From positions 1 through 64,000 of the IMG/VR virus record IMGVR_UViG_3300046779_001754: DNA of 64,000 nucleotides; one strand, 5' to 3'. This stretch comes from a virus. The notes below the pieces were generated by a model. That model worked only from the letters and a program-made list of their open reading frames with translations. It was not told the DNA's origin and did no database searches. Each line of letters opens with the position of its first letter. Within the stretch, counting starts at the first letter, position 1. Of this stretch, positions 1 to 52,794 are shown piece after piece. Made by a program: the position numbers and the translations under genes.

Positions 1-11
1 ATAATGCAAGT

Positions 12-209
12 GTGCCCTGGCCTAAAAACGATGATCCACAAATGGATTGGGCCTGGGGAGTATATTCTCTAGAAGAATGGTTACGCCAACATGTCGGACC
101 CAGATATAAACACTGGGCCTATGACGACTGTAATGTAATGTTTAACATCGGGGTAGCATTTAGATGGGAGCGCGATCGCACTCTTTTTGTGCTGACCTGG
201 ACAAGATAA
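12..209 (+). CDS. small phage protein with C-terminal F-x2-E-x-D-x3-F-x-L-x-W motif (probably 5'-truncated by window edge)
   Basis: Frame is open to the window start; ends FRWERDRTLFVLTW, a motif shared with other small ORFs here. Confidence 0.6.
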   Translation: MPWPKNDDPQMDWAWGVYSLEEWLRQHVGPRYKHWAYDDCNVMFNIGVAFRWERDRTLFVLTWTR

Positions 210-210
210 T

Positions 211-302
211 GGAAGTGTGGCAGAGTCTGGTTTATTGCACCGGTCTTGAAAACCGACGGTTCAGAAATGGGTCCGTGAGTTCGAATCTCACCGCTTCCAC
301 CA
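211..302 (+). tRNA. tRNA-Ser(TGA)
   Basis: Cloverleaf, loop CT-TGA-AA, long variable arm, TTCGAAT, CCA. Confidence 0.93.
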
Positions 303-307
303 ATTCG

Positions 308-383
308 GCTGATGTGGCACAGTAGGTAGCGCACATCCTTGGTAAGGATGAGGTCACCAGTTCGATTCTGGTCATCAGCACCA
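308..383 (+). tRNA. tRNA-Thr(GGT)
   Basis: GCTGATG/CATCAGC acceptor stem, CATCC-TTGGTAA-GGATG, CCA. Confidence 0.95.
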
Positions 384-384
384 A

Positions 385-413
385 TTGACAATTTATATCA
401 ACTATGCTATAGT
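385..413 (+). promoter_or_regulatory. sigma70-type promoter
   Basis: TTGACA-17nt-TATAGT with extended -10 TG. Confidence 0.6.
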
Positions 414-414
414 A

Positions 415-489
415 CGGTCTGTAGCTCAGTGGAAGAGCTCTGGTCTTCGGAACCAGCTGTCGGCAGTTCGAATCTGTCCAGACCGGCCA
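415..489 (+). tRNA. tRNA-Arg(TCG)
   Basis: CGGTCTG/CAGACCG acceptor stem, CTGGT-CTTCGGA-ACCAG anticodon arm, CCA. Confidence 0.85.
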
Positions 490-490
490 A

Positions 491-567
491 CTCTGTATAG
501 CGCAGCCTGGTAGCGCACTTGCATGGGGTGCAAGGGGTCGGGAGTTCAAATCTCTCTACAGAGACCA
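491..567 (+). tRNA. tRNA-Pro(GGG)
   Basis: CTCTGTA/TACAGAG acceptor stem, CTTGC-ATGGGGT-GCAAG, CCA. Confidence 0.93.
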
Positions 568-569
568 AG

Positions 570-636
570 TATAAATATTTTTGTTGTAGTGCCTTAGGGG
601 CTACAACAAAATCTTGCTTATTTTAAGGAGAAAAAT
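570..636 (+). promoter_or_regulatory. TATAAATA late-type promoter plus ROSE-like RNA thermometer 5'UTR of dnaK
   Basis: TATAAATA 570-577; hairpin 579-611; TCTT-G-CTTA/TAAG-GAGA hairpin sequesters the SD with a bulged G (UUGCU motif). Confidence 0.7.
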
Positions 637-2511
637 ATGAGCACAATTATTGGTATTGACCTAGGTACCACAAACAGTTGCGTAGCCGTTGTTGAAAACG
701 GTGTGGCAAAAATTATTGAAAATTCTGAAGGCGCACGTACTACCCCTAGTATTGTTGCCTACACCGACGCAGAAGTTCTTGTTGGAGCCCCAGCAAAGCG
801 TCAAGCAGTAACCAATCCCCGAAATACAATCTATGCTGCCAAGCGACTAATTGGTCGTAAGTTCCGGGAACAGGCGGTACAAAAAGACATTGACCTAATG
901 CCGTATCAGATTGTAGAAGCCCAAAATGGTGACGCATGGGTCCGAGCAAACAATCAAGACCTGGCACCTCCGCAAATCTCCGCAGAAGTTCTGCGTAAGA
1001 TGAAAAAGACTGCAGAAGATTATCTTGGTCACGAAGTCACAGAAGCTGTAATCACAGTTCCTGCTTACTTTAACGATTCGCAACGTCAAGCTACAAAAGA
1101 CGCAGGTAAGATTGCAGGCCTAGATGTCAAACGTATTATCAATGAGCCTACTGCGGCTGCCCTGGCCTACGGTGTTGACAAAGCAAGTAATCGCGATCGT
1201 AAAGTTGCGGTGTATGATCTAGGTGGTGGTACATTTGATGTATCAATTATTGAAATCGCCAATGTAGACGGTGACAAACAGATTGAAGTTCTCAGCACCA
1301 ATGGTGATACATTCCTTGGTGGCGAAGACTTTGACAATCGTATCATGGATTATCTTGTTGCTGAATTTAAAAAGGAATCTGGTGTTGACCTAAGCCGGGA
1401 CGTTATGGCGCTGCAACGTCTCAAAGAAGCAGCCGAACGTACTAAAATTGAACTCAGTAACGGCTCACAGACCGATGTCAATTTGCCTTATATCACAGCC
1501 GATGCCACAGGGCCAAAGCATTTAAATATTAAGATGACTCGTGCTCGACTGGAATCCCTAGTTGAAGATCTAATTCAACGCAGTATTGAGCCATGCCGGG
1601 TTGCCATGAAGGATGCAGGTGTTACAGCCGCTGACATTGATGAAGTTATCTTAGTCGGTGGTCAAACACGTATGCCCAAAGTACAAGAAGCAGTTGAACG
1701 ACTATTTGGTCGGGCACCTCGCAAGGATGTCAATCCTGACGAAGCAGTTGCAGCAGGTGCAGCAGTACAAGGTGCAGTGCTAGGCGGTGATCGCAAAGAC
1801 GTACTGTTACTTGACGTAACACCGTTGAGCCTTGGAATTGAAACGCAAGGTGGTGTGTTTACTAAATTGATCAACAAGAACACCACTATTCCCACAAAGC
1901 ATAGTCAGGTGTTTTCAACCGCAGATGATAATCAACCTGCTGTGACAATTAAAGTTGCGCAAGGCGAACGTGAACTATTCCAGTATAACAAGCTACTAGG
2001 TGAATTCAACTTAGAAGGTATTGACCCTGCGCCACGTGGTATGCCACAGATTGAAGTTACTCTTGACATCGATGCCAATGGTATTATTCATGTATCGGCA
2101 AAAGACAAGAAAACTGGAAAAGAAAATAAAATCACTATCAAGTCAGACAGTGGTCTAAGTCAGGAAGAAATTGACCGTATGGTCCAAGATGCCGAGGCCA
2201 ATGCCGAGGCTGATAAGAAACAACGCGAGTTAATTGAAGCTCGTAACCAAGCTGAATCAGCAGTACATGGCATTCGCTCTGATCTAAAGGACACAGGGTC
2301 ACAGCTCTCTGAGAGCGAGCGTCAGACTATTGATGATGCATTAAATGAAGTAGAAAAGGCCCAAGCTCAAGATGATGTCGCAGCAATTAAGTCTGCTGTT
2401 GAAAAAGCACTTAAAGCGTCAGCTGCTTTGTTTGAGGCCAAGGCCAAGAGTCAGTCTACGTCAGATTCCGACGACACGGTAGTTGATGCCGAGTTCAAAG
2501 AATCCAAGTAG
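637..2511 (+). CDS. dnaK: molecular chaperone DnaK (Hsp70)
   Basis: [38 protein letters not shown]-terminal VVDAEF. Confidence 0.99.
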
Positions 2512-2518
2512 ATCCCCA

Positions 2519-2542
2519 GGCCCAGTGTAACTGGGCTTTTTT
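2519..2542 (+). terminator. rho-independent terminator
   Basis: GGCCCAGT-GTA-ACTGGGCT followed by T-run. Confidence 0.8.
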
Positions 2543-2558
2543 GTGAAAGGAAAGTAAA

Positions 2559-3113
2559 ATGAACGTTCTTGCATTAGACATTTCAGGGCTACCACGCAAA
2601 TGGATCAGCTTTGAGGAAGCGATCTTATATCATGCTAAAAATCAAGTCGCTTGGAGTCTAGGCGAGACAGTGGCAACGTTCCGCGGTGGTTATCAACGCG
2701 GCGGCGAGCAAAGCGTTCTAGAAACTCCAAGTATCATTGCTGTAAAAGGACAAGGTTTTAGTTTAAAACGTGCGGGTCGAGTTATCCTGACTAACCGCAC
2801 ATTGTTTGCACGTGATCTGCATGTGTGTGCATATTGCGGCGAACGACATACTACGCCAAATCTAAGTCGTGACCATGTGATTCCCCGGAGTCGCGGTGGT
2901 GAGGATATATGGACCAACGTAGTTACGTCATGTCATCGGTGTAATCATTCCAAAGGAGCTCGTACTCCCGAGGAAGCTCGTTTACACTTACGTTATGTTC
3001 CTTACGAACCTAACCATTACGAGAACTTAATTCTGCAAAATCGTAAGATACTTGCAGATCAAATGGAATACTTACTGGCAGGCGTTCCAAAAAGTTCAAG
3101 ACTATGGCAATAG
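2559..3113 (+). CDS. HNH endonuclease (McrA-like)
   Basis: RD..CAYCG, DHVIPRSRGG..W.NVVTSCHRCN..KG. Confidence 0.92.
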   Translation: MNVLALDISGLPRKWISFEEAILYHAKNQVAWSLGETVATFRGGYQRGGEQSVLETPSIIAVKGQGFSLKRAGRVILTNRTLFARDLHVCAYCGERHTTPNLSRDHVIPRSRGGEDIWTNVVTSCHRCNHSKGARTPEEARLHLRYVPYEPNHYENLILQNRKILADQMEYLLAGVPKSSRLWQ

Positions 3114-3512: not shown

Positions 3513-4367
3513 TTGAAAAAAATATTAATAATCGTATTGGCCGCTCTATGTTTAGTTACTGGTGCCGAAGCAAAACAAAAAAAACATCGGCATCATCACG
3601 TAGCGACAAAAAAAGTCGCAGTGACCAAAACAAAATATAGTTCTGTTCGCACTGTAGCACCAATAAGCATATTGGCGTATGACATCAAATCTCATACCGC
3701 AGTGCATGGATATGCCACTAGTGTTGTGAGGCCAATGGCCAGTTTAACTAAGTTAATGACAGCAATGGTGAGTTTAGATGCCAATCATGACTTACAACAG
3801 TCTGTGAAATATCAAGGACGTTGGGTACCTAGAGAACAATTGTTTCAACGCCTGTTGATTAGAAGTGACAACAGTGTTGCAGAATTCTTGAGTCAAGATT
3901 ACCCTGGCGGTCGAGATGCATTTATCTCAGCGATGAATCACAAGGCAGCACGACTGGCCATGCTTGACACACACTTTGACGACCCCAGTGGTCGCATACA
4001 TACCAATGTCAGCACCGCAGAAGATGTTGGTCGTATGTTAGAAGCTGCACATGGTTATCAAACCATTCGTAGAATTTCAACCTATCAAGATTTAACAACC
4101 ACCACAGTGGTTAAACGACGCAACAAAACCACTATCAATGTTAATCATGCACCAAACACCAACACCATGGTGCTAACTGCTTTCCCTGAAGTGGTAGTAA
4201 GCAAAACTGGTTTTACCAACCCCGCAGGATACTGTGTGGGAGTTGTTGTAGAACAAAATGGACGTACCTATGTAGTAGTTGTCATGGGTGCCCATAATCG
4301 ATATGAAAGATTTGACAAAGTAAAAGATGTCATGTACAATCATATTGTTGCAGCGTCAAACACATAA
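3513..4367 (+). CDS. D-alanyl-D-alanine carboxy/endopeptidase (peptidase S11, PBP7-like), exported
   Basis: Signal peptide; SxxK (ASLTK), SxN (SDN) and KTG motifs; TTG start with GGAG SD. Confidence 0.9.
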   Translation: MKKILIIVLAALCLVTGAEAKQKKHRHHHVATKKVAVTKTKYSSVRTVAPISILAYDIKSHTAVHGYATSVVRPMASLTKLMTAMVSLDANHDLQQSVKYQGRWVPREQLFQRLLIRSDNSVAEFLSQDYPGGRDAFISAMNHKAARLAMLDTHFDDPSGRIHTNVSTAEDVGRMLEAAHGYQTIRRISTYQDLTTTTVVKRRNKTTINVNHAPNTNTMVLTAFPEVVVSKTGFTNPAGYCVGVVVEQNGRTYVVVVMGAHNRYERFDKVKDVMYNHIVAASNT

Positions 4368-4826: not shown

Positions 4827-4839
4827 AATAAATATTAGT

Positions 4840-5904: not shown

Positions 5905-5930
5905 AAGCCCGCTTCGGCGGGCTTTTTCTT
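5905..5930 (+). terminator. rho-independent terminator
   Basis: AAGCCCGC-TTCG-GCGGGCTT plus T-run. Confidence 0.9.
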
Positions 5931-5941
5931 GGCCAAAAAAT

Positions 5942-6039
5942 TTGCAACCTGATTGCTAAAAATGTATAATTACTATTTGCGTAGTGCTCTTGGAGATTAC
6001 GCATACTTTCTTGCTTATTTTTAAAAGGAGAAGGCAACG
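5942..6039 (+). promoter_or_regulatory. sigma70 promoter plus ROSE-like RNA thermometer 5'UTR of groES
   Basis: TTGCAA-17-TATAAT; hairpin 5978-6003; CTTTCTT-G-CTT/AAG-GAGAAGG hairpin with bulged G over the SD. Confidence 0.7.
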
Positions 6040-7957
<1,918 letters not shown>

Positions 7958-12355: not shown

Positions 12356-12387
12356 ATGATCGATAAATATGTACATTAAGGTGATAT

Positions 12388-21405: not shown

Positions 21406-22701
21406 ATGACTAAAAGCAGCGGCACTACAAAAAACGATAAAGAACTAGCAAAGAAATTTGCTAACCTTATTGGTCCCACAGATCCCAAACTTGATCGCGA
21501 AGTACGAGAACTTTTGATTACTGCGCGAGTTGGCTTGCTACTTAAATCTAGTTTCTTTGGAAATCTTGCAACACGATTGAAACTTGTCAATGCCGACGAA
21601 TGGTGCGCCACTGCTGCCACAGATGGTCGTAACTTTTATTACAACACTCGTTTTGTTAAAATGCTGGGCTCTCGTGAGCTAGAGTTTTTGTTTGGACACG
21701 AGGTCCTACACGTAGTTTATGATCACTTTGGTCGTCGTCACAGTCGTGATCCGCAATTATGGAACATTGCCAATGACTATGCTGTCAATGCAGACTTGAA
21801 AAAACACCGCGTTGGTGAGTTTATTACTTCGGTTCCTTGCTTGTATGACTCAAAATTTGAGGGCATGAGCTCAGAAGAAATTTACGATAATCTATACGAG
21901 AATGCCGAAAAAATTGATATTAATCAGCTGATTGATAAACTGCTTGATGATCACATGGATGGTCAAGGCGACGGCGAGGACGACAGTGAAGGCAGCAACA
22001 AAGATGGTCAAAGTGGAGGCAAGCGTCCCAAGCTAACCGACGAAGAACGCCAGGCTATCCGTGATGAGATTAAAGAAGCAGTGCTGAGTGCAGCACAGGC
22101 ATCAGATGCAGGTTCTATTCCTGTTGGTGTCAAACGCATTATTCAAAATCTCACTGAACCCAAGATGAACTGGCGTGAGATGCTACGTATGCAAATGGAG
22201 TCAACTATTAAGTCGGACTTTACATGGATGCGGGCAAGTCGCCGGGGATGGCACATGGATGCTGTGATGCCAGGTATGAAGCCCGACGAAATGATTGACA
22301 TTTGTGTTATGCTTGATGCTTCAGGTTCTATTGGTGAAGTTATGCTTAAAGACTTCCTTAGTGAAGTACAAGGCATCATGGATCAATTTGGACAGTTCCG
22401 TATTCACATTGCTACGTTTGACACCGAAGTATATAATCCTGCTAGTTACGACAGCGAGAACATGGACACTATGTTAGATTACGAAGTGTCTGGTGGTGGT
22501 GGCACTGACTTTGAATGTATGTTCCATTATCTCAAAGATCAACAAATTGAACCCAAACGATTGATTGTGTTCACTGACGGTTATCCGTTTGGTTCTTGGG
22601 GTGATGAAAACTACGCCGACACATTGTGGATCTTACACGGTACCAAGAGTATTGTTCCACCCTGGGGGCAATATGCTTACTACGAAGAGGAATCAAACTA
22701 A
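21406..22701 (+). CDS. metallopeptidase-like plus VWA domain protein (DUF2201-type MoxR partner)
   Basis: TAATDG, HEVLH, WNIANDY, DASGS MIDAS, GGGGTDF, FTDGY. Confidence 0.9.
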   Translation: MTKSSGTTKNDKELAKKFANLIGPTDPKLDREVRELLITARVGLLLKSSFFGNLATRLKLVNADEWCATAATDGRNFYYNTRFVKMLGSRELEFLFGHEVLHVVYDHFGRRHSRDPQLWNIANDYAVNADLKKHRVGEFITSVPCLYDSKFEGMSSEEIYDNLYENAEKIDINQLIDKLLDDHMDGQGDGEDDSEGSNKDGQSGGKRPKLTDEERQAIRDEIKEAVLSAAQASDAGSIPVGVKRIIQNLTEPKMNWREMLRMQMESTIKSDFTWMRASRRGWHMDAVMPGMKPDEMIDICVMLDASGSIGEVMLKDFLSEVQGIMDQFGQFRIHIATFDTEVYNPASYDSENMDTMLDYEVSGGGGTDFECMFHYLKDQQIEPKRLIVFTDGYPFGSWGDENYADTLWILHGTKSIVPPWGQYAYYEEESN

Positions 22702-33204: not shown

Positions 33205-34238
33205 TTATTAATTCATTCACTAGTTGGCAACCACTTGAAGAAGTCATTGTAGGAAGAGCTTACAGCCCGGAGTATTTTGATTTCATTAGCAACAGCCAGG
33301 TACGACATCAATTACAACAAATACTTTCTGAGACTCAAGAGGATCTTGATAATCTTCAACGCACGATTGAACAGTTTGGTGCAAAAGTTCAGCGTCCTTC
33401 TTTGCCCGATCTACACTGGTTTCATGACAGTCAAATCAATAATCAAGGCGTACCATTGCCGCCACTGACTCCTAGGGATTGGCAAATTACACTTGGTAAT
33501 AAATTGCTAAGAGTATTGCCAATAGAAGAACTTAACAAAATTTGTACGGAATACGAAACTGCTGAACCAGGATCTGTTATTAATCCACATGGACGTTGGG
33601 GGTGGAATCCAGATTGCATACTCAACAGTGCTTCGGCAAGCTGTATTGTACGTGTGGGTCGTGATGTGTTCTTTGACAACAGTGACTTTTTACGTCCTGA
33701 TCAAAGTCGTTGGATAGTTGAAAATGTTCTAGGGCCTGAATATCGAATACACGAAGCAGTGACTGATGGTCACGGCGATGCTGTGTTTGCAATTCTTAAA
33801 CCCGGTGTGATACTGTCAAGTAAACATGATGTTAACTTAAACTTTGATAGAGATTTTCCTGGATGGGAAGTGTGTAGAATTTGGGATAGCAGCATTTGGG
33901 CAGCCATGGAAGTTGGCAAATTTAAGTACGATACCAATCCTGGTGCATGGTATGTGCAAGGTCAAATACCTACTCCTGAATTTACCGACTATGTTAATAC
34001 CTATCTTAATAAGTGGACTGGATATGTTGCTGAAACTGTATTTGATGTAAATTGTTTGGTACTAGATGAATCGCATGTGATTTTTTCAGCATACAATAAA
34101 ACTGTGTTTGATTTTTGTGAAAAGCATGGCATTGAACCTATTATATCAGAGCTGCGACACAGTTATTTTTGGGACGGCGGTGTAAGTTGTTGTACGCAGG
34201 ATATTAGACGAACAGGCGGATTAGAGACTTATCTCTAA
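33201..34238 (+). CDS. amidinotransferase-family protein (paralog 2)
   Basis: WQPLEEVIVG, TPRD, GHGD, FWDGGVSCCTQD. Confidence 0.85.
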   Translation: MIINSFTSWQPLEEVIVGRAYSPEYFDFISNSQVRHQLQQILSETQEDLDNLQRTIEQFGAKVQRPSLPDLHWFHDSQINNQGVPLPPLTPRDWQITLGNKLLRVLPIEELNKICTEYETAEPGSVINPHGRWGWNPDCILNSASASCIVRVGRDVFFDNSDFLRPDQSRWIVENVLGPEYRIHEAVTDGHGDAVFAILKPGVILSSKHDVNLNFDRDFPGWEVCRIWDSSIWAAMEVGKFKYDTNPGAWYVQGQIPTPEFTDYVNTYLNKWTGYVAETVFDVNCLVLDESHVIFSAYNKTVFDFCEKHGIEPIISELRHSYFWDGGVSCCTQDIRRTGGLETYL

Positions 34239-35770
34239 CTGCAGACCTTTACACCATACAACATTTCAAATCTATTGGCATCTGCACGATCATTGACCAT
34301 AGGCTCTCCACGGACATTTAAACTTGTATTGAGTAACATTGGACACCCAGTTGCTCCGTGCCATTTCTCTAAGAGCATTCTGATTCCTGAACCGTTTTTT
34401 GGAACCGTCTGTACTCTACTGGTCCCATCAACATGGCAGATAGCAGGAAAACGGTCAGGAAACCTACAACGAGCGACTGACTGCATATAATGGCTATTAC
34501 ACCACCCAGGGCTGAAATCAAAGTACTGATCAGCCATCTCCTCCAATACCACAGGGGCGAAAGGTCTAAATTTTTGTCTACGTTTAATTTCATTTACACG
34601 ATCCTTGATATCTGCACCACGTGGGTCTGCTAATAGACTACGATTACCTAGTGCCCTAGGTCCAAACTCTGCGCGACCACTAGCAACACCAACAATGCCA
34701 TCAGCCAGTAGGCTATCAAGAAGGGAATCAATAGGGTATGCGCCAGATATATCATGCCCAAGATAAGCATTGCGCCAGTTGAGACGATGACCATAGGCCA
34801 GTGCCGCAGCACCAAGGCTACTACCAGCATCACCAGGATTAGGCATAATCCATATATGTTCAAAGTATTCTCCTAGGTTTCTATTTGCTAGACAGTTAAG
34901 TGCAACGCCGCCCATAAAAACAAGATTTTCGCAACCGTTGCTGAGAGTTCTAGCCTTGCTCATTACACTTGTTATCAAACGTTCCAACACCTGTTGAGCA
35001 CAAGCAGCAGCATCTTCAGGAGGTAATTCATTCCAAATGCCCAATGGTGGCAATCCAATGTGATAGTTATCTTTGAAAGTTAGTGCATCTATATCCCTAA
35101 CTATCTGTGATTGCAATAAGTCAGCACAGTCAGTTTTTCCATATGCTGACATGCCCATGAGAATGTATTCCTCTTCCATGGGCACAAGATCGCAGTGTTT
35201 GGTCATTGCCGAATAAAACAATCCTATGCTATGAGGATATGTTTGTTTCCATAACTGTGTATATTGTGCATTGCCTTGGCTGTTGTATCTGGCACGATAA
35301 ATTGATATTGTATCAATTTCACCTATAGCATCGATCACTACCACAGTGGCGTAATCAAACGGGCTGGTTTGAAATCCAGCCGCTGCATGACTCAAATGAT
35401 GATCAAATGCCACTCGTGACACGCCCATGTCAACACAAAATTCATCGGCCCAACTATTACTATCACATAGTTGTTGATAATATTTTCCTAGATACTGATT
35501 CAAACATTGATCTATGGTGAGATTGCCCCATTGAAGTCGTTCGCCGCTGCGTAATCTACGCAACTGCTTGCGCCAAGGCTTTTCATAATATGCCACTGTT
35601 TGAATATCAAATTGCTGTATATCCTCAATGAGTCTAGGATGGATATTTGAATCATGTTTGATTTTACTATACCTTTCGCTGTGAGCAGCAAATAATATTT
35701 CGCCCTGCGGACTTACAACCGACAATGCTGCATCATGAAATCCGGCGCTGACACCTAGAATATTACTCAT
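34235..35770 (-). CDS. carbamoyltransferase (NodU/CmcH family)
   Basis: HDAA, ERYS..KH, HHLSHAA, GGVALN, EFGPRALGNRS, RPFAP, LNTSLN. Confidence 0.96.
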   Translation of the reverse strand: MSNILGVSAGFHDAALSVVSPQGEILFAAHSERYSKIKHDSNIHPRLIEDIQQFDIQTVAYYEKPWRKQLRRLRSGERLQWGNLTIDQCLNQYLGKYYQQLCDSNSWADEFCVDMGVSRVAFDHHLSHAAAGFQTSPFDYATVVVIDAIGEIDTISIYRARYNSQGNAQYTQLWKQTYPHSIGLFYSAMTKHCDLVPMEEEYILMGMSAYGKTDCADLLQSQIVRDIDALTFKDNYHIGLPPLGIWNELPPEDAAACAQQVLERLITSVMSKARTLSNGCENLVFMGGVALNCLANRNLGEYFEHIWIMPNPGDAGSSLGAAALAYGHRLNWRNAYLGHDISGAYPIDSLLDSLLADGIVGVASGRAEFGPRALGNRSLLADPRGADIKDRVNEIKRRQKFRPFAPVVLEEMADQYFDFSPGWCNSHYMQSVARCRFPDRFPAICHVDGTSRVQTVPKNGSGIRMLLEKWHGATGCPMLLNTSLNVRGEPMVNDRADANRFEMLYGVKVCS

Positions 35771-35873: not shown

Positions 35874-36955
35874 TGTGTTTTCCTTGAGCTGTATGCATAT
35901 CCTGGTTTCAACATATCAATTTGTAGTTGATCGTAATTGTCGTCGCTCCAGACATAATCGTACACAGCTTGATAGCCATTGACTTCTATTGAATATATAT
36001 CTAAATGTGCACCTAGCATTTGCCATATTTGATAGGGATCATCGGTACCAAAACTAGATTCAAGTAACACTTTTCCTATAGGTAAGTGCCCTAGACTCAA
36101 TCTAGTGTCGTTGGCATCAAGACCTTGTGATATAATCCAATCGTAAAACGGTTGCATATTTTTGTTCCACCAGTCTTGATTGTGATCTACTGTGCGTCCC
36201 CACTCAATATCAAACTCTCCTGAATAATACTGTAAATGAGTAATGGCCTCACACACAGTGTCAGTTAATTTGGGAGCACCTTCATCGCGCCATACTTCAA
36301 AATATGTTTTACCAATTTGGCACCAGTGCATGTACACAGTACCAAAGTGTCGCTGGTATCCGTTGAGTCGAAACCCATTGCGATGCTGGTCAGTTAACTG
36401 ATGTCTTGGTGCATTTAACCATGTGGTTATTTGACTGGGGCGCACCCATTCAGGATCACGTTGTAATTTGCGTTGGCTTAAAATTAAACTTTCAAGTTCA
36501 TGGCAAATGTTGTTGAGTTGCCTGATAGCAAATTTTGTTTGATCGTTGGCACTGCGATAGAACGTACTGAGATTGTTAACAGTTCCTTGTAATCTTTCAA
36601 AATGATTATGTAACAGATTTAGTGTTTCGTGATTGGGTCCAAGATCTATTGCAACAACTGTGTCTGGAGTATATGATTCAGAGATACAATAATGCCCACC
36701 AAAAAAGTCGTTGATACATTGAATATGTTTGTTTAATGTGTTACACAAGTAGTCAAGGTTTCTTGCTGAGTGAGGGAAACCTAGGAAACAAAAATTTTTC
36801 TCCAACATTAGACCACGACGTAGTAAATTTTCTAGTGCTATAATCCAGTCTTGAGCAAGTTGATGATCAGCGGGTTCAATGTAATAGCTTAACTGATCAT
36901 CCTTGTCAAGAGGGTTACGCAAGGTAACTTTAACTAATGTTTTTCCACCACTCAT
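35870..36955 (-). CDS. hypothetical protein
   Basis: Long ORF within the operon; His motifs LNLLHNHFE, LNNICHELE. Confidence 0.75.
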   Translation of the reverse strand: MSGGKTLVKVTLRNPLDKDDQLSYYIEPADHQLAQDWIIALENLLRRGLMLEKNFCFLGFPHSARNLDYLCNTLNKHIQCINDFFGGHYCISESYTPDTVVAIDLGPNHETLNLLHNHFERLQGTVNNLSTFYRSANDQTKFAIRQLNNICHELESLILSQRKLQRDPEWVRPSQITTWLNAPRHQLTDQHRNGFRLNGYQRHFGTVYMHWCQIGKTYFEVWRDEGAPKLTDTVCEAITHLQYYSGEFDIEWGRTVDHNQDWWNKNMQPFYDWIISQGLDANDTRLSLGHLPIGKVLLESSFGTDDPYQIWQMLGAHLDIYSIEVNGYQAVYDYVWSDDNYDQLQIDMLKPGYAYSSRKTQ

Positions 36956-38228
36956 AAACTTTAGGCCTCTGTGAAAGTATTCGGTCCATGTCTGTTGTAC
37001 AGGGACGCATTGATTCTAATTGTAATATGCGATTTTTGCCCTTGACTACCCCGGCTGGGTATTGTTCGGGCCATTGTTCTTCAAATGTTGGTCTTGACCG
37101 TAGTTGCAGCAGCACATCTTTTATAGATCCCACTGCTGTCTCTAACAATTCATCAATCCAAGGTTCCAACAATCTACGAGGCAATATCAACGGACTCATA
37201 AAAATATCCGGACTAAAAGCAAATACAGTTTTGGCCAATATGTCAACTCCAAGGTTGTTGGCCATTTGTTGTATGGCATCTGTTTCAAACATGCCCGGTA
37301 ATGTCAATGTAAAGTCAACACGCATCTGTCTTGGATGTTGTTGGTGTTCTACTCCTTGTGAGAAGTTACGGAGCCAGTTTTGGTAGTCAAGTCCTGTGCG
37401 GACATATTCGCCAATCTCTCCGGTGCCATCAATGCTAGCGCAAATTTGCCAATCGCGTAGATGATCAAGAATATCGGTGTACAAATTAATACCCCGGTAA
37501 TTAATCCTACTAAGATTTGTGTTGTATCGAGCATAAACATGTTTTCCATCTCCTAATTCAATAATTCGTTGCATATAGCGCCAATGCTGTTCAAACATCA
37601 AGGGTTCGCCACCAACCCAATATACTTCTTCAATGCGATGCTCTTCGACTGCTTGGCTAAATTCTTGTTCTATTTGTGTGTCTTGAAACTGAGTTATTTC
37701 CCTGCGCACATCAGGAATCATCCAATTGTTATTGGGATTACTGTAGTCAACCATGTTGTATTGCCGTTGTTCTGCTTCCCAACTACTACTCAACATATCG
37801 CCACACATACGACATTTAAAATTACAAAGATTACTGAACCTATAGTCCCAAGAAATTGGCTTCATTGTGGTGTAACCAGTTTCGTCTGTGCTGGACCATA
37901 TGTCGTTGTATTTGTGTTTAAACAGATGCCAAAAATAATCTCTATAGACGTCGGTGTTGAGTAATTTATTGTTACAGACATCGCATTCGGGCATAGTGTT
38001 TCCGGCCATCATACGACGACGGACGTCTCGCATGTGTTCACTATTCCAGTGTTCTTCAAGTGTCAATGGTTGATACTGATTTGATCCTGACTTGGTATCT
38101 ATGTATTGTTGAAAATTTTGTGCGGGTTCTCGGCTAGCACAACACATACGACGTTCAGTTATTGGAGAAAGATATGTATGTACCCAAGGTGCCATACACA
38201 ATGATTCGGGCTTGTCAGGCGGCGTCAT
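36930..38228 (-). CDS. radical SAM protein with N-terminal twitch/SPASM-like domain
   Basis: CMAPW..CC..CDVC; CNFKCRMC; GGEP. Confidence 0.92.
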   Translation of the reverse strand: MTPPDKPESLCMAPWVHTYLSPITERRMCCASREPAQNFQQYIDTKSGSNQYQPLTLEEHWNSEHMRDVRRRMMAGNTMPECDVCNNKLLNTDVYRDYFWHLFKHKYNDIWSSTDETGYTTMKPISWDYRFSNLCNFKCRMCGDMLSSSWEAEQRQYNMVDYSNPNNNWMIPDVRREITQFQDTQIEQEFSQAVEEHRIEEVYWVGGEPLMFEQHWRYMQRIIELGDGKHVYARYNTNLSRINYRGINLYTDILDHLRDWQICASIDGTGEIGEYVRTGLDYQNWLRNFSQGVEHQQHPRQMRVDFTLTLPGMFETDAIQQMANNLGVDILAKTVFAFSPDIFMSPLILPRRLLEPWIDELLETAVGSIKDVLLQLRSRPTFEEQWPEQYPAGVVKGKNRILQLESMRPCTTDMDRILSQRPKVYEWWKNIS

Positions 38229-39456
38229 CGTAATATGGTCCTTGGTAATGTATAAATTTTGCCAACAATGGTGCTACATCTACAAGACTTTGCTTCCGAA
38301 GTTTATCTAAGCAATCTATTTCATAAGTCAACGTTCCGCCACGACCGCAACCCATCCACCCTTCTCGCGAATACATAAAGTCTATTATTTTTTGCAGATC
38401 ATCAACAAACTGATCTGGTATTAACTTGTTTCGCAAATACATAGCTATGCGATCTTTTACTACATCAACAACATTAGCAATACACCATACCGGTGAATCG
38501 TGTAAGTAGTTCCAATAAACAAAATCCCAAGGAAACAAACTGGCCCAGGCAGCAATTTCATCAAAGTACGCTACATTCCATATGCTTATGGTACAGCACA
38601 ACTGTAGTTGAATATTCTTTGACTGGCGGCGTAGTGTTCTAAACTTATAAAGATTAGACAACACTTCATCCCACTTTGCATTGCTGCGTTGGTATTCAAA
38701 GCGAGCACCAATATCGTCAATGCTAAAGGCAATTTCAACTGTTTTAAAATGTGGCCAAAGTTCTATACCTCGCTCGGGATATTGTGTGCCATTGGTGTTG
38801 TAATGTATCTCAATGTTGCCAGCAACTCCGCGACCTACAAGTGTTTGCAGGAAATCAAAATGCTCGGCAATCATAAATGGTTCGCCGCCAGTAAACTCAA
38901 GGTAACGTATTTGATCAGCAATGTCACTGAGTTGCTGCCAGAAGTCTGGCGATTCCCTAGGCCAACGACCTTCTCGTAACATCTGATAAGCATAGGTTTG
39001 CTTTTTGTCCAGCGACATAACAGTGCCAATCTCTTCCGAGGCATAGGTACTTGAACTCCAAGGCCCGCAGATACGACATTTTAAATTACAGATATTTCCT
39101 AATTTGAGATCTAAAAAGATCAGATCCTTGGCATCTTCGGTCCATTCAGTGTCGCCAATTATATGCTCGAGTCGATTAAGGGTGTGTTGTCGCTTGGAGG
39201 TTCCGCCCGAGTCTTCGACCGCCCAGCAACGTTCACATGTTGATGGAAGTTGATTCGCAAGGAATTCCTGTCGGAGTTTTTGCATGTGACTGCTATTTCG
39301 TATTTGATCAAAGGTCGAGGTTTTAAGGTGGAATTTGTTGTTGTTGTCATCTACAATCTCATCTTTGGCTAGACAGCACGGGCGCACTGTTCCGATAGGT
39401 GATGTTTCTAAACTTACCCAAGGTAATATGCAAAATTTATCGTGTGGAATTTTCAT
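38215..39456 (-). CDS. radical SAM protein with N-terminal twitch/SPASM-like domain
   Basis: CILPW..PCC..CERC; CNLKCRIC; GGEP. Confidence 0.92.
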   Translation of the reverse strand: MKIPHDKFCILPWVSLETSPIGTVRPCCLAKDEIVDDNNNKFHLKTSTFDQIRNSSHMQKLRQEFLANQLPSTCERCWAVEDSGGTSKRQHTLNRLEHIIGDTEWTEDAKDLIFLDLKLGNICNLKCRICGPWSSSTYASEEIGTVMSLDKKQTYAYQMLREGRWPRESPDFWQQLSDIADQIRYLEFTGGEPFMIAEHFDFLQTLVGRGVAGNIEIHYNTNGTQYPERGIELWPHFKTVEIAFSIDDIGARFEYQRSNAKWDEVLSNLYKFRTLRRQSKNIQLQLCCTISIWNVAYFDEIAAWASLFPWDFVYWNYLHDSPVWCIANVVDVVKDRIAMYLRNKLIPDQFVDDLQKIIDFMYSREGWMGCGRGGTLTYEIDCLDKLRKQSLVDVAPLLAKFIHYQGPYYDDAA

Positions 39457-40738
39457 TTAACTCTGCTAACTCGGGTATCGTATCTAGTATATTTTCATTG
39501 CGCATTTGATCTAGTTGATGTGTGCGTTCCCAAAATTTAGTTTGTAAATGTGAGTTATCCTGTGCCATCATAAAGTTTATGGCGCTTTCAAAACCTTTGG
39601 TTGCACGTTGCAATGAATCGTGTGGTCTAAGCCACTCTAAATGTTCTTCAAATCTTGCTTTTAGTTGTTCTTTGTAGGCAGCACCGGCTATGTCAATTCT
39701 ATAAAATTCTGGATCTTGTAATATATTGACATTTAGATCTTGATGACGTATAAATCCACGCTCAACCCAGTTACGATGAAAGTCAGGTAAGTGCCATGCA
39801 TTCATAATACTCAACGTTGGTGAGATATAAAAATCAACTTGCGGACAGATACGAAGCATGTCTACTCTATTCTGCTCAATTTGATCCCAGTTGGATCCTT
39901 TGCGTATGTATTCTGCATAACCTTCGGCACCATCAAGACTTGCACCTACACTGACGCTGTCAAACAATTTCCAATATTCAAAAACACTGCGATCTTTTAA
40001 TTGAGTATGCGTAAAGTTTGTGTTGTAAACTAATCTAACGTGAAATAGACTGCGATTCACAAGTTCCTCAAGGATGCGATAGTGCTCATGCATCAAGAGT
40101 GGTTCGCCACCAGCAAAATAAATTTGTTCAACATAATCTAAGTGCGGTAACAGTTGGTTGATCATATCATCTTCGTCACGTCCAGCAATGTTTAGCACTT
40201 GATGATTTTTAGCCCATTCTGCTCCAGCAAGTTTGACCTGATCTTGATACCATTGACTTGAAAATATGTGTCCACAACTACGACATTTTAAATTGCAAAG
40301 ATTACTGAAACGTATATCCCAATAGGACATTTCAAATGTGTCAAGATGGCCGTCTTCGGATGTAGCATCAATTTTATGTATGTGATGACCATGATGTTTG
40401 TTAGCACTATTTCTTCCGCTGCGAAACCCAGCAGCTTCTTGTTCGTAACAGCGGCCACAAGCTCCGTTGGGACGATCGTTCAACATATTTTGTCGCAGCT
40501 TTCGCATGGGTTGATCGTTCCAGATTTCTTCTAGAGTATTGTTTTTTGCTGAACCCACTGGCGCCCACATTTCTGCCATACAACATGGAAACACTTCGCC
40601 AGTGGGATATGAGTGCAAGTGAATCCAAGGATAAATGCAAAAAGTTTTTGACTCAGTTAACATGTATACCTTGCGTTTGTCTAACGAATCAAGAGAAATG
40701 TTTACTGGATCGGTACTGTTATAATCAAATTTTTTCAT
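39437..40738 (-). CDS. radical SAM protein with N-terminal twitch/SPASM-like domain
   Basis: CIYPW..PCC..CGRC; CNLKCRSC; GGEP. Confidence 0.92.
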   Translation of the reverse strand: MKKFDYNSTDPVNISLDSLDKRKVYMLTESKTFCIYPWIHLHSYPTGEVFPCCMAEMWAPVGSAKNNTLEEIWNDQPMRKLRQNMLNDRPNGACGRCYEQEAAGFRSGRNSANKHHGHHIHKIDATSEDGHLDTFEMSYWDIRFSNLCNLKCRSCGHIFSSQWYQDQVKLAGAEWAKNHQVLNIAGRDEDDMINQLLPHLDYVEQIYFAGGEPLLMHEHYRILEELVNRSLFHVRLVYNTNFTHTQLKDRSVFEYWKLFDSVSVGASLDGAEGYAEYIRKGSNWDQIEQNRVDMLRICPQVDFYISPTLSIMNAWHLPDFHRNWVERGFIRHQDLNVNILQDPEFYRIDIAGAAYKEQLKARFEEHLEWLRPHDSLQRATKGFESAINFMMAQDNSHLQTKFWERTHQLDQMRNENILDTIPELAELNENSTR

Positions 40739-42059
40739 ACCAATCTTTCAAAGTATCAAATGTCTGTACAAAGGTTTTACTACGACGCTGATCATATTGT
40801 GTATAAAACTTTTTAAAATCTTGTTGTAGTATTGCTTGCTCAGCTGCACCGGCATGTGGAGTTTTAACAACATCAAGATAATCCACTAATCTTTGTAAGT
40901 GATTCCACTCGTGTTCGTGAAGGTAGCTGTGACCTTTATGACGTACCATGAATTGTGAAATCTGGTCTCGGTACTGTGTGCGAAGCTCGCCTGGCAATAC
41001 CAATGGACTTTGAAAGCTAGGGAATCGTAAAATATTTAACGTAAAACTCACTGCATCATGACCAAATTCTAATTTCCAGTTCACCACACATTCTAAAAAA
41101 TCAACCAAACTTTCCAAACACAGAGCATTGATGGTTGACATAATATGTAACCCACGCAGTCGGTCGCTGTGATTGTTTAGTATAAGTTCTACACTATTAG
41201 CCCAATCGTCCCACACCAATCCGTCTCTAATATACTCTGCATGAGCTCCGATAGATTCGTTACTAGTGTATAGGTCAATGGGTGTGTCCACACTATCAAA
41301 TAAGCGATTGATATCAACGTCGTTTCCTAGGTTTGAGTTAATTGCTAGTCTTGTTTTGCTCCGGCCTTGGTTTGCTCGGAACCAGTCAAGGAGTTGCCAG
41401 GTGTACCCAGACATGAGTGGCTCACCTCCGGTAATTCGGAGTTCGTCAAGTGTTCTGTGTAAGTCTGATTCCCACCAGGCAAAGAAGGCTTCGACATAAG
41501 GATTAATCTCACCGAATTTATAAAGTTGAGAATGATCATGAGTGTGAGTAAAATGGTTCCTACCATCGCTTTCCAGTCCCACATATGGGCCGTTGTTTCG
41601 TATATCCCGAACCCAAGTGCTACTAAAGGCAGGATTGCAATAACTACAAGCAAATTGGCAAGTACGATCAAAGCTAATTTCCAAGGTTTTGAGATTGACG
41701 TCTTGGTCCGCGGGTGTGTTGAATGCACGATCTAAGTCCTCCAAAGGATAAATTTTACTTTTGTACACACGATCACTTATGGCATTGCGATTCATGTCTT
41801 CTATTTTCCAACAATATTCACAACCTGCTGGACGTTCGCCACGTTGCATTTGTTCGCGGTCTTGCTTTTTTTGTGTGGTGTTGTGCAGTAACCCAGGGTT
41901 AGCACGGAGATTATCGGCCTCCACTAAATGAGCCGGTGGATGATGGCATGATGTGGTCATGCCTGAACCCAGCCAAATGGTCGCATTATACCACTTTGCT
42001 GCACAAAAACTTTTACTTTTAGTATCAAGTATCTGCTGTCGGAACTCTAAGTCGTTCAT
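40725..42059 (-). CDS. radical SAM protein with N-terminal twitch-like domain (CxHP subtype)
   Basis: CAAKW..SCHHP..CEYC; CQFACSYC; GGEP. Confidence 0.92.
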   Translation of the reverse strand: MNDLEFRQQILDTKSKSFCAAKWYNATIWLGSGMTTSCHHPPAHLVEADNLRANPGLLHNTTQKKQDREQMQRGERPAGCEYCWKIEDMNRNAISDRVYKSKIYPLEDLDRAFNTPADQDVNLKTLEISFDRTCQFACSYCNPAFSSTWVRDIRNNGPYVGLESDGRNHFTHTHDHSQLYKFGEINPYVEAFFAWWESDLHRTLDELRITGGEPLMSGYTWQLLDWFRANQGRSKTRLAINSNLGNDVDINRLFDSVDTPIDLYTSNESIGAHAEYIRDGLVWDDWANSVELILNNHSDRLRGLHIMSTINALCLESLVDFLECVVNWKLEFGHDAVSFTLNILRFPSFQSPLVLPGELRTQYRDQISQFMVRHKGHSYLHEHEWNHLQRLVDYLDVVKTPHAGAAEQAILQQDFKKFYTQYDQRRSKTFVQTFDTLKDWYEKI

Positions 42060-42762
42060 ATATTTTAATTAATTGTTTGGCTATGTGTTGATGCCCTTGC
42101 ACATTGGGATGACAATACCCGGGTTTTACATATTGATCTAAATAATAACTTTGCTCATTCCATTGCGAATTCGTTATTACTGGTCTATCACTGTCTACAA
42201 CAGTACCCGATTGATTGTCAATTAGGGGCATAATTAATTGCGAAATACATTGATCCCTGGGCAGTAACCAAGATTCTTTGGGAACTAGATCAATCATTGT
42301 GAGGGGTTCGGTAGTGAATAAATTCACAAACCAACATTTTACACCCAAACTCTGACACCAAAGCCATAGTAAGTTTACAGCACAATCATAATTGTACAGC
42401 CTTTGTGTTGGTGTGTCAAAATATTTGTACCATAAATTGGATTCTGCGTGTACATGAGCATTGTAGTTTGGTCCAGGAATAATTTGTTCTGGAATACCTT
42501 GCTCGTTAAAAATTGCTGTTCGGTGGCTTGCACTTAGGCAAAAGAATACCTGGTCATTGGCATCTAGCTGGTTGACAATTTTTGCAAATTTCCATGGGAT
42601 GATATCTGGGCTAGATCCAGATTCACCTAAATTAACACAGTCAGCAGAGTAATGATCGCTAAACAATTTTGCAAAAACATATTGCTTTCTTTCTGCATAC
42701 GCAACTGTGAGCTCTAGCTCGTCGCCAACTAACCAGCTATCACCAAACCAATAAAATTTCAT
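42025..42762 (-). CDS. SGNH/GDSL hydrolase-like protein
   Basis: FGDSW, NLGESGSS, HPNVQGHQHIA. Confidence 0.7.
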   Translation of the reverse strand: MKFYWFGDSWLVGDELELTVAYAERKQYVFAKLFSDHYSADCVNLGESGSSPDIIPWKFAKIVNQLDANDQVFFCLSASHRTAIFNEQGIPEQIIPGPNYNAHVHAESNLWYKYFDTPTQRLYNYDCAVNLLWLWCQSLGVKCWFVNLFTTEPLTMIDLVPKESWLLPRDQCISQLIMPLIDNQSGTVVDSDRPVITNSQWNEQSYYLDQYVKPGYCHPNVQGHQHIAKQLIKIYERLRVPTADT

Positions 42763-43916
42763 AGACCAATTCCGTGATAACGCATGAACTGCAAAAACTT
42801 TTCAGGAAATTCGCGACGTACAGTTTCGCGCATATTCCACAAGTGTTTTTGATTATAATCGCATATTGGCCTTGCTGCTGCTAAAAAATCAATTAAGTTT
42901 CTTTCGCTGCTGCACAAATCTTCAACAATATGTTGAATCCTAGTCAAACGATCTAGATCGTTATCTATGGTATCAAACGATTCATCAATGATGTTTTCAA
43001 AAGTTCTGAATCCTAACTTTCTAATGTCTCGATAATAACCAGCATTTGAAACCGCTATCCAAGGATGTCCAATTGCAATAGGTTTCCAAATTTTTTCTGT
43101 TCTAAAACTGTAAGGATAGTTAAAGATAGTTTCTGTCACAAGACTGAAATAGGTATCAATGTATGGTGTATGATGCACATAAACTTCGCCCCAGTCAAAC
43201 CCATTGCCATTGTTAAATAAATCTGCCTTGGCAAAGTTGTTAGTTGGTTCAACTGCTAAATTTGGTCTATAGCGAGGCACTTCGTAACCAGCATCAAGAT
43301 ATTTTATTTCAAGAGGTTCCAACATTAGATCAATGCCATTGTACATCAACTTCATGTTTTTATGTGATCTCCCCGAACTATCAAGATTAGACCATATTGC
43401 TTGATCCAGTAATCCACTTAGTTGAAAACTTTGCAACAAGAACTTTCTATGCGGACGAAACCTGCCGTTGAGAAATAAAAATTTAAAAGGTTTGTATATC
43501 TTGGTAAAAATATCATCTGTGTAATGATGTAATATTCGGTTTTCAGGTATATCAAAAATTTTGGGTAGAAAACTTTCGTAGGGCAAATGATGAAAGCGTG
43601 GTTCAATATCTCCGCCGCCAATCAACAACATTCGTCCTTGAGCAACATATTCATCTAATTTCAATGTAGTGATTTGCCACTTCAAAGTTTCAGATCCTTC
43701 GGTGGGATTACTCAACACTATAAGTGCCTGACCGCTTTCAATGACCTCTATCACTTTTACAATGTTGTGATTAACTTGCGCTCGCCCCAACACATACACA
43801 GCATTGTTGACAATTTCTTCATCGGCAAATTGATGAATCACATAATCTGTATAGGGCGTAAGCAAATCAGTTACTTCAGAGAACCCGTCAACAATTAGTT
43901 TTTTATGACCTATCAT
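42759..43916 (-). CDS. putative glycosyltransferase (GT10-like)
   Basis: ETIF...TEKIWKPI...GFRTF..IIDESFD. Confidence 0.55.
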   Translation of the reverse strand: MIGHKKLIVDGFSEVTDLLTPYTDYVIHQFADEEIVNNAVYVLGRAQVNHNIVKVIEVIESGQALIVLSNPTEGSETLKWQITTLKLDEYVAQGRMLLIGGGDIEPRFHHLPYESFLPKIFDIPENRILHHYTDDIFTKIYKPFKFLFLNGRFRPHRKFLLQSFQLSGLLDQAIWSNLDSSGRSHKNMKLMYNGIDLMLEPLEIKYLDAGYEVPRYRPNLAVEPTNNFAKADLFNNGNGFDWGEVYVHHTPYIDTYFSLVTETIFNYPYSFRTEKIWKPIAIGHPWIAVSNAGYYRDIRKLGFRTFENIIDESFDTIDNDLDRLTRIQHIVEDLCSSERNLIDFLAAARPICDYNQKHLWNMRETVRREFPEKFLQFMRYHGIGL

Positions 43917-44953
43917 ACAAATAAATTATCTTTTTTGGTGTGTTGCTCTTGAGCATACTCATAAAATCTATTGTGATTGTGTTCAAGTGCAGGCATCATT
44001 TCATAGTACAAATTCATGATGTCATTGCTAGTCAATGTAGTAAGATATTTGATTGCAGCAATCAATGTATCGTGTACTTGGTTTTCATTTATATCTTCAA
44101 ATTTAATACCAGGAAAATAGTGATTAAAAGTTCGGAACCCGTTGTCTCGCAACCAAGCATAGGTTCGAGTATTACCGTTTATCAAGAATGGACGTTTACC
44201 AATTATGGGTTTCCACTGTGTTTCACTAACAAAAATGTCATCCCAGGGCCAAAACTCTGTGGCACCTATGATATGTAAAAAGTGATTTTGCCAAACTTCT
44301 AAGTTATGTAAACTCAAAACGTCATGAGGTATACCAAACTCATCATCACTATACCAATGACCAGTGGATCTATAATCGTCAATTCGTTCGCCAATGCTAA
44401 AATATAAGTTGTTACTGGGATCCTGGTCGTAAATTACGTTAGGTTTACCAAGTGTAATTATGCCTACTTGATCTAATTTGTTTTCTACTAGTTTACGTAC
44501 AAACTCTACTCTATGTTGCCTAGGTTTACGATTGTAGTTACAATATAACCAACGCACAGACTTCAATGTGATATCTTCAACTGTGTAGGATTTAAAACTT
44601 GTTGCTAGTATTGGAGCAAAAAAATTATAGTGATACTTGGTATCAAAGTTGCCTATTTTAAACAAACAGGGATTACCTAGATGTCTGACAATTTCACTGA
44701 TTTGTTGAGGATTGATCATTGGTGGATCAACAGTGGCCAACAAAAACAAATTGTCAAAGGTTTTGTTAAGTTTTTGATAATCTACCCAAGAGTGATTTGG
44801 GAATTGTGGGCCAAACCAAGTAAGGTTAATGATTAGATTTTGTTTATCAGCAAAGTGTAGGTTAACTTGATTCTTGAGTGATTCAATGCACTGCATTTCG
44901 TGCATGCCCCAGAGACAGTCCTGGCTGAAGTGTGTTCCAATATAATCAAGCAT
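43913..44953 (-). CDS. putative glycosyltransferase (GT10-like, divergent)
   Basis: NRKPRQHR; FVSETQWKPIIGKRPF...GFRTF. Confidence 0.5.
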   Translation of the reverse strand: MLDYIGTHFSQDCLWGMHEMQCIESLKNQVNLHFADKQNLIINLTWFGPQFPNHSWVDYQKLNKTFDNLFLLATVDPPMINPQQISEIVRHLGNPCLFKIGNFDTKYHYNFFAPILATSFKSYTVEDITLKSVRWLYCNYNRKPRQHRVEFVRKLVENKLDQVGIITLGKPNVIYDQDPSNNLYFSIGERIDDYRSTGHWYSDDEFGIPHDVLSLHNLEVWQNHFLHIIGATEFWPWDDIFVSETQWKPIIGKRPFLINGNTRTYAWLRDNGFRTFNHYFPGIKFEDINENQVHDTLIAAIKYLTTLTSNDIMNLYYEMMPALEHNHNRFYEYAQEQHTKKDNLFV

Positions 44954-52747: not shown

Positions 52748-52794
52748 TTTCTAACCTGTCCTTGTCAGTTATTTATTGTAAAATCTACCCATAT

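Follow-up and report, generated by a model that had tools for sequence, protein, structure and literature searches.

Can a phage place the translation of its own Hsp70 under the control of temperature? The question is raised by the 60-nt leader of a dnaK gene in a 64,000-nt stretch of viral DNA (hereafter, the window), which comprises positions 1–64,000 of the 100-kb IMG/VR record IMGVR_UViG_3300046779_001754. In a preliminary description of this DNA, the leader had been taken for a ROSE-like RNA thermometer, by which the phage would regulate Hsp70 independently of σ32 of its host. ROSE-like thermometers are known from bacteria, mainly from small heat-shock genes. They are defined by two to four hairpins, the last of which contains the sequence U(U/C)GCU, imperfectly paired to the SD (Shine-Dalgarno) sequence around a predicted bulged G; in the crystal structure of the oppF element this core consists of a U.G wobble, the bulged G, and a C-G pair (PMC11342760, PMC11182007, PMC3669281). 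We consider it moderately probable that the phage dnaK leader is a short, two-hairpin ROSE-like element which acts in cis as a heat-labile switch.

Architecture of the leader and its second copy

The sequence observation behind the preliminary description was confirmed. The upstream hairpin with a GTAGTGC core (586–592), here designated P1 (Table 1), is present, has a loop of 3–4 nt, and is stable (RNAfold z = −4.1 for 568–645). It is followed by UCUUGCUUA, four U, AAGGAGA (625–631), and the dnaK AUG at 637. The pairing of UCUU-G-CUUA with UAAG-GAGA, designated P2, was found exactly as described, letter by letter: the outer part consists of U612-A631, C613-G630, U614-A629, and U615.G628, the inner part of C617-G627, U618-A626, U619-A625, and A620-U624, with G616 bulged between them. 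The SD strand, UAAGGAGA, ends 5 nt before the AUG. UUGCU (614–618) faces AGGA (626–629), which yields U.G wobble, bulged G, and C-G pair in this order. The leader thus agrees with the definition of ROSE-like thermometers in the number and position of its hairpins (P1, 579–611, and P2, 612–631, right before dnaK), in the imperfect pairing of the conserved U(U/C)GCU to the SD sequence, and in G616 lying between U615.G628 and C617-G627; the geometry of this hallmark is identical to that of the defining core.

The same phage carries a second copy of the leader before groES, 5.4 kb downstream of the first (Table 1). There, the fold of lowest energy (−7.1 kcal/mol at 37°C) is the anti-SD helix, bulged G included. 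In the 100-kb contig the composite motif occurs at two sites only, before dnaK and before groES, yet 13 of the 86 long open reading frames (ORFs) have a strong SD sequence. Likewise, a covariance model built from related leaders matched the window only at 581–639 (56.6 bits) and at 5976–6039 (36.3 bits).

Conservation and covariation among related phages

Related phages were collected by protein similarity, irrespective of whether the motif was present. All 66 distinct dnaK leaders contained it (CTTGCTT in 49, CTTACTT in 12, CTCGCTT in 3, and CTCACTT in 2), as did, in the form of CTTGCTT or a pair-preserving variant, all 48 distinct hsp20 leaders having a GGAG SD sequence. Among distinct groES leaders the proportion was 29 of 55, the remainder belonging to phages with plain σ70 leaders.

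For P2, the numbers given here are from the anchored count; the model-based alignment sets the SD side in two registers, which makes its P2 counts unreliable. Of the six core pairs, five were paired without exception (100%) in the 143 distinct leaders and the loop-closing one in 97% (139/143), the four non-pairing cells all being at the latter position (three U.U and one G.A). Each of the 20 changes of pair type within the core preserved pairing (ten from U.G to C-G and eight from C-G to U.G; at the innermost U-A, one to A-U and one to G-C). The bulge was occupied by G in 126 of these leaders and by A in 17, and the U/C alternation (mostly UUGCU, also UCGCU) is that of the published consensus U(U/C)GCU. 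For P1, the covariation score was 0.481, compared with 0.225 after shuffling (none of 500 as high) and at most 0.151 with slid partners; one of its pairs, for example, was GC in 47, UA in 28, CG in 18, and AU in 12 relatives. The conserved pairing in homologous UTRs (untranslated regions) which the preliminary description had named as a check was therefore found, as strong covariation in P1 and as retention of the core pairs of P2. In most related groES leaders the anti-SD helix is also the minimum-energy structure, and it extends further past the core than under permuted pairings (2.26 versus 1.59; 4 of 2,000 permutations as high).

Two variations of the architecture were observed. In many related dnaK leaders (for example, L020:2935–3003, L039:2937–3003, and L014:2935–3003), P1 and P2 are separated by an additional small hairpin (GGGC-AUAGR-GCCC or GGAC-ACGAG-UCC), whose purine-rich loop is conserved; the dnaK leader of the window is without it. 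In another dnaK leader (L007:2930–3003, CTCGCTTGCTTACTTAAGGAG), three anti-SD words (CTCGCTT, CTTGCTT, and CTTACTT) overlap, resembling a tandem duplication of the motif.

Folding energetics and the proposed mechanism

When the leader was folded without coding sequence, which was taken as the state during transcription, exactly P1 and the anti-SD helix were obtained, with P1 stacked directly on the latter. In this fold the paired fraction of the SD sequence fell from 96% at 5°C to 82% at 37°C and to 62% at 50°C (unpaired probability 0.04, 0.18, and 0.38, respectively). This in silico melting resembles that of the validated Escherichia coli ibpA element used as a control, for which the same calculation gave a decrease from 95% to 60% (unpaired probability from 0.05 to 0.40).

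Several results weigh against a thermometer on dnaK. None of the Rfam models ROSE (RF00435), ROSE_2 (RF01832), and ROSE_3 (RF02523) reached its gathering cut-off, so that the comparison by Infernal proposed in the preliminary description turned out negative: window positions 1–3000 gave no ROSE match at E up to 10, the best ROSE score of a 111-nt slice was 11 bits (ROSE_2, cut-off 65; freshwater-2 gave 16 bits, and both are at noise level), and 0 of 38 related loci attained an Rfam gathering score. The positive control, E. coli ibpA, scored 100.4 bits with ROSE_2 in the same tool. Moreover, the anti-SD helix of dnaK has little stability (−2.2 kcal/mol at 37°C; −5.8 kcal/mol at 15°C) and is by energy not better than chance (z = −1.25 for 608–645; 24 of 200 shuffles as good). 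Whenever coding bases were included, the RNAfold optimum was a competing helix of UGCUUAU with AUGAGCA, which masks the AUG and leaves the SD sequence in a loop (−5.2 versus −2.2 kcal/mol at 37°C). In related dnaK leaders the helix extends past the core no more than in permuted controls (1.19 versus 1.24), and true compensatory changes in P2 are few, because the SD side cannot vary freely. Finally, the concerted exchange of bulged bases described below is not required by a plain zipper thermometer, and the temperature response itself is inferred; public RNA runs gave matches only on tRNA and on conserved dnaK pieces of other organisms, and none on the leader. Of the original proposal, the core geometry and its conservation on phage chaperone genes stand, as do P1 and the anti-SD helix in the leader-only fold; a score above the Rfam threshold and masking of the SD sequence in the thermodynamic optimum do not, since the AUG-masking helix wins once coding bases are present. 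As energy alone is insufficient, the case for more than chance rests on the comparison between phages.

According to the folding model, the masked element of dnaK may be the AUG instead of the SD sequence. Pairing between UTR and coding sequence was rejected as a conserved feature: the AUG helix cannot be shared, because groES and hsp20 leaders have other, unrelated start sequences, and in L051 and L055 the pairing is broken. In the dnaK clade with a UCU codon, G616:C642 becomes A:U. The phage DnaK proteins with the leader begin with M-S-K/T (AGC, AGU, or UCU; window 640–642) and the nearest bacterial ones with M-G-K or M-A-K (GGC or GCA); in the clade with a bulged A, these codons are UCU AAG, which gives a fully paired helix of 7 bp with the leader (GAUCUUA/UAAGAUC).

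Should the leader be a thermometer, the following mechanism can be envisaged. Transcription probably starts just past TATAAATA, a box resembling late promoters of T4. P1 would then be located at the mRNA 5′ terminus, its most likely roles being to protect the transcript and to set the fold. Behind P1, the pairing of UCUU-G-CUUA with UAAGGAGA would occlude the ribosome-binding site at low temperature. The helix is short, A/U-rich, and weakened by the U.G wobble beside the bulged purine, and should therefore open as temperature rises, or upon other destabilization in the cell, whereupon 30S subunits could bind. On dnaK, UUGCUUA would alternatively pair with AUGAGCA, so that either the SD sequence or the AUG is hidden. 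Together with the leaders on groES of this phage and on hsp20, dnaK, and groES of hundreds of others, the element would constitute a phage-owned chaperone regulon under translational control, driven by phage or σ70-type promoters and not by σ32.

Relation to known RNA elements

Since no Rfam ROSE model reached its threshold, the leader is a phage variant of the ROSE-like kind and not a scored member of an Rfam family; it was found described neither in Rfam 15 nor in the literature searched. Its closest relatives are the two-hairpin ROSE-like thermometers of Pseudomonas ibpA, of 61–62 nt (Krajewski et al, 2013, PMC3669281; ROSE_3, RF02523). Both are leaders of ∼60 nt on a heat-shock gene and have a 5′ hairpin, which is stable and does not melt in Pseudomonas (hairpin I), as well as a short 3′ hairpin II, whose U(U/C)GCU and SD sequence form an imperfect helix around a bulged G. 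ROSE_3 is also the Rfam model nearest to the relatives of the phage leader, despite having no match on the window itself. Unlike its counterpart in Pseudomonas, however, hairpin II of the phage is A/U-rich and without flanking G-C clamps, P1 has a conserved bulged purine of its own, and a variant with bulged A exists. Furthermore, the phage leader is found on dnaK and groES and not on small heat-shock protein (sHSP) genes alone, stands behind phage-type or σ70-type instead of σ32 promoters, and has, on dnaK, an AUG that can be masked.

The SD hairpin of E. coli ibpA (ROSE_2, RF01832) has the same shape, with three pairs, bulged G, three pairs, and a 4-nt loop (CUC[G]CUG-AUUU-CAGGAG, compared with CUU[G]CUU-AUUUU-AAGGAG in the phage), the innermost pair being G-C there and U-A here; in contrast to the phage leader, E. 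coli ibpA has three hairpins and a σ32 promoter. Bacterial ROSE-like elements on other than sHSP genes demonstrate that the UUGCU/SD core works outside this class, and the crystal structure has the U.G, bulged G, and C-G proposed here. They differ in being bacterial and on other gene classes, and ROSE-G, with CUGCU and two opposed G bulges, is unlike the phage core. Two validated phage RNA thermometers were counted, λ cIII and SPβ blyA, besides a reported candidate for a Caudoviricetes σ70 (PMC11182007). These are likewise phage-borne and concern translational control by temperature, but they are not ROSE-like and not on chaperone genes. A FourU thermometer was rejected, as the strand opposite the SD sequence reads CUU-G-CUU and not UUUU.

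Gene association, distribution, and origin

Viral contigs were scanned for a pattern which is unbiased with respect to the gene downstream (CTTGCTTA, gap, AAGGAG, gap, ATG). At least 81 matches were obtained; among the matches listed, 3 lie before dnaK and ∼70 precede proteins of 134–165 aa with IbpA-like N termini (Pfam HSP20 in 9 of 10 tested). With all loci fetched, there were 341 unique instances, which precede HSP20 (216), DnaK (71), GroES (30), very short ORFs (16), or other genes (8), i.e., one of the three chaperones in 317. In many phages the chaperone genes are clustered, with one leader per gene. The hsp20 leader is present in the cultured cyanophages S-PM2 and Syn9, the Pelagibacter phages Mosig and HTVC115P, and Sinorhizobium phage Phosso. 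If the leader does sense temperature, a large share of aquatic phages, including S-PM2, Syn9, and pelagiphages, would carry a self-contained translational heat-shock regulon of hsp20, dnaK, and groES that is uncoupled from σ32 of the host, which bears on temperature effects on phage production in lakes and oceans. The ROSE principle would then extend to the major chaperones, and this could be tested in existing phage–host pairs.

Several phages have a complete leader (ATAAATA, P1, ACTTGCTTA, and AAGGAG) before an ORF of no more than 7–11 codons (e.g., MSKQTFLT; Table 1), ∼100 nt upstream of groES with its own σ70-type promoter. The short ORF could be the decayed start of a gene or else a leader peptide.

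As a bacterial comparison, the 80 closest dnaK loci were used, mostly from Burkholderiales (including Polynucleobacter and Limnohabitans; 66–73% identity). None of the 80 has the motif, and all have σ32-type promoters (of the type CTTGAAA...CCCCAT). Acquisition of the leader together with dnaK from a host was rejected on these grounds. The claim of independence from σ32, in turn, is supported by the phage-type TATAAATA before dnaK, compared with the σ32-type promoters of the bacterial loci. In 301 Burkholderiales genomes the pattern was near chance (70 matches versus ∼45 in the reversed control), with hsp20 downstream in 1 of the 30 loci read. This hsp20 (L463) has a σ32 −10 box, P1 with bulged G, and CUUGCUU...AAGGAG; ROSE_3 scored it 28.6 bits over the full model and the Syn9 hsp20 leader 17.6 bits (cut-off 43). 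The two-hairpin leader of L463 connects the leaders of phages with ROSE-like elements of bacteria, and the simplest reading would be that phages took up a bacterial leader of the sHSP type, which was then extended to the dnaK and groES genes they carry.

The concerted bulge switch and other explanations

P1 and P2 have one bulged purine each, located 5′ of C-G pairs, and the identities of the two change together: 215 leaders are G/G, 25 are A/A, and no more than 2 were discordant, the latter looking like misfolds. In genomes of the A type every leader, whether on dnaK, hsp20, or groES, is A/A, despite the fact that the P1 stems differ; as they differ within a genome, whole leaders are not homogenized. 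In a FastTree phylogeny of 78 DnaK sequences, in which L007 and L008 count as G type, the A type forms a 13-member clade and appears separately in L051 and L055, inside a well-supported G clade. Statistics for the switch are weak, because there are about two independent events and leaders may have been exchanged between phages. The switch hints that something besides heat may read the leader, possible causes being a trans-acting reader, a tertiary contact between P1 and P2, or a common shift of the set point. Rather speculatively, the two purines could be one functional unit, as contact points of a trans-acting reader or in a tertiary purine–purine contact, which co-evolved from G/G to A/A at least twice, in all chaperone leaders of a genome. 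The switch of the chaperone regulon (hsp20, dnaK, and groES) would then be a dedicated factor, or else a tertiary fold of the two hairpins. Such a factor or fold would be without counterpart in the described ROSE elements.

The same observations bear on an explanation that we regard as unlikely, although it is the most probable of the alternatives, namely, a translational operator that responds primarily to something other than temperature. The trans-acting factor reading it, a small RNA or an RNA-binding protein of phage or host, would recognize hairpins with a bulged purine beside C-G, similar to phage coat-protein or RegA-type operators. It would account for the joint change of both bulges, for the single state per genome across leaders with different P1 stems, for the all-A state at two separate places of the DnaK tree (unless this reflects only two events, or exchange of leaders), and for a CUUGCUU that is near-invariant beyond what base pairing demands. 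No candidate factor was identified, however, and the motif is complementary to the SD sequence exactly as in ROSE and also occurs in a bacterial context, that is, in E. coli ibpA and the Burkholderiales hsp20 (L463).

Constitutive tuning, in which P1 stabilizes the mRNA 5′ end and a weak SD or AUG helix damps or paces chaperone translation, is still less probable. It would suit the weakness of the dnaK helix, whose predicted occupancy shifts only gradually with temperature, and 5′-terminal hairpins are known mRNA stabilizers (PMC3669281), but neither the confinement to heat-shock genes (two sites per 100 kb here, 317 of 341 instances elsewhere) nor the retention of the exact ROSE core would be explained. 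A very improbable reading is that CTTGCTTA acts as DNA, for example, as a middle-promoter element or another operator: substitutions obey RNA pairing rules, no conserved −10 element follows the motif in related leaders, and one positioned 11–13 bp downstream would overlap the SD sequence and AUG, so that transcripts would start inside the gene. TGCTT resembles the core of the T4 MotA box, and the phage uses the T4-late-like TATAAATA. A search of the 100-kb contig, ∼17% of the genome, yielded no MotA_activ domain, but the control genomes could give no positive in it either. The CIRCE/HrcA operator (TTAGCACTC-N9-GAGTGCTAA) was rejected as well, because the window does not match it even when up to 3 mismatches are tolerated; P1, with its 3–4-nt loop and stems that vary among relatives, is unlike CIRCE.

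Genome context

At 100 kb, the record is ∼17% complete according to CheckV, and its source, a freshwater phage, is therefore very large. TATAAATA is the probable promoter of the dnaK unit (Table 1). The word ATAAATA it contains is rare in the window (5 found versus 16.6 expected; all 100 shuffles were higher), and the copies lie just 5′ of ORF starts or after tRNAs. Placement and depletion are as expected of a promoter word avoided elsewhere, and ATAAATA is found within 90 nt upstream of 199 of the 322 related leaders. P1 as the terminator of the tRNA array was rejected, since neither strand has a U-run after it.

Table 1. Positions of the leaders and of associated features (window coordinates, unless a locus is named).
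Feature	Position	Strand	Remarks
Four tRNA genes	211–567		Reach up to the TATAAATA box
tRNA-Pro	491–567		Directly 5′ of TATAAATA
TATAAATA, T4-late-promoter-like box	570–577	+	Single occurrence in window
ATAAATA copies	571–577, 4828–4834, 12363–12369, 52770–52776 (−), 52792–52798 (−)		Just 5′ of ORF starts or after tRNAs
P1 of dnaK leader	579–611	+	12 outer pairs; G591 unpaired/bulged; C592-C593 pair with two of G597–G599
Anti-SD strand, UCUUGCUUA	612–620	+	ROSE motif UUGCU at 614–618; bulged base G616
SD strand, UAAGGAGA	624–631	+	GGAG at 627–630; partner of 612–620
Competing helix, UGCUUAU (615–621)/AUGAGCA (637–643)	615–643	+	Masks AUG
dnaK	637–2511	+	624 aa; Pfam HSP70, E = 5e-257
Terminator-like hairpin	2518–2538		Closes dnaK unit; terminator scan
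tmRNA terminator	5905–5924		5′ of groES-groEL promoter
σ70-like promoter, TTGCAA-17-TATAAT	5942–5970	+	groES-groEL unit
Second leader copy	5978–6034	+	Before groES; covariance model match and fold
P1 of groES leader	5978–6003	+	Bulged G5986
P2 of groES leader	6006–6016 with 6025–6034	+	CUUUCUU[G6013]CUU with AAG-GAGAAGG; 5 nt before AUG 6040
groES	6040–6324	+	ORF; N terminus GroES
groEL	6335–7957	+	ORF; GroEL relatives, 69–86% identity
Short-ORF leaders of related phages	L099:696–786, L100, L102, L104, L108, L109, L117, L142, L155, L159, L160		

A σ70 promoter of near-consensus sequence (TTGACA-17-TATAGT with upstream TG) is located at 385–413, between tRNA-Thr and tRNA-Arg, and could transcribe through into dnaK, because there is no terminator in between. 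An HNH endonuclease gene (2559–3113; Pfam HNH_5, E = 4e-17) lies between dnaK and the next tRNA block, and a second one is found at 21406–22701 (phrog_1314, E = 9e-110). Amid tRNA genes, the ORF at 3513–4367 encodes a D-alanyl-D-alanine carboxypeptidase-like protein (Peptidase_S11, E = 1e-29). On the minus strand, region 36930–46319 contains several paralogous ORFs of ∼430 aa with weak radical-SAM matches (phrog_14086 and phrog_1802), adjoined by a Nol-like carbamoyltransferase (34235–35770, E = 9e-91), which together look like a modification or biosynthesis cluster. Also on the minus strand, a single ORF of 3,453 aa spans 53577–63938.

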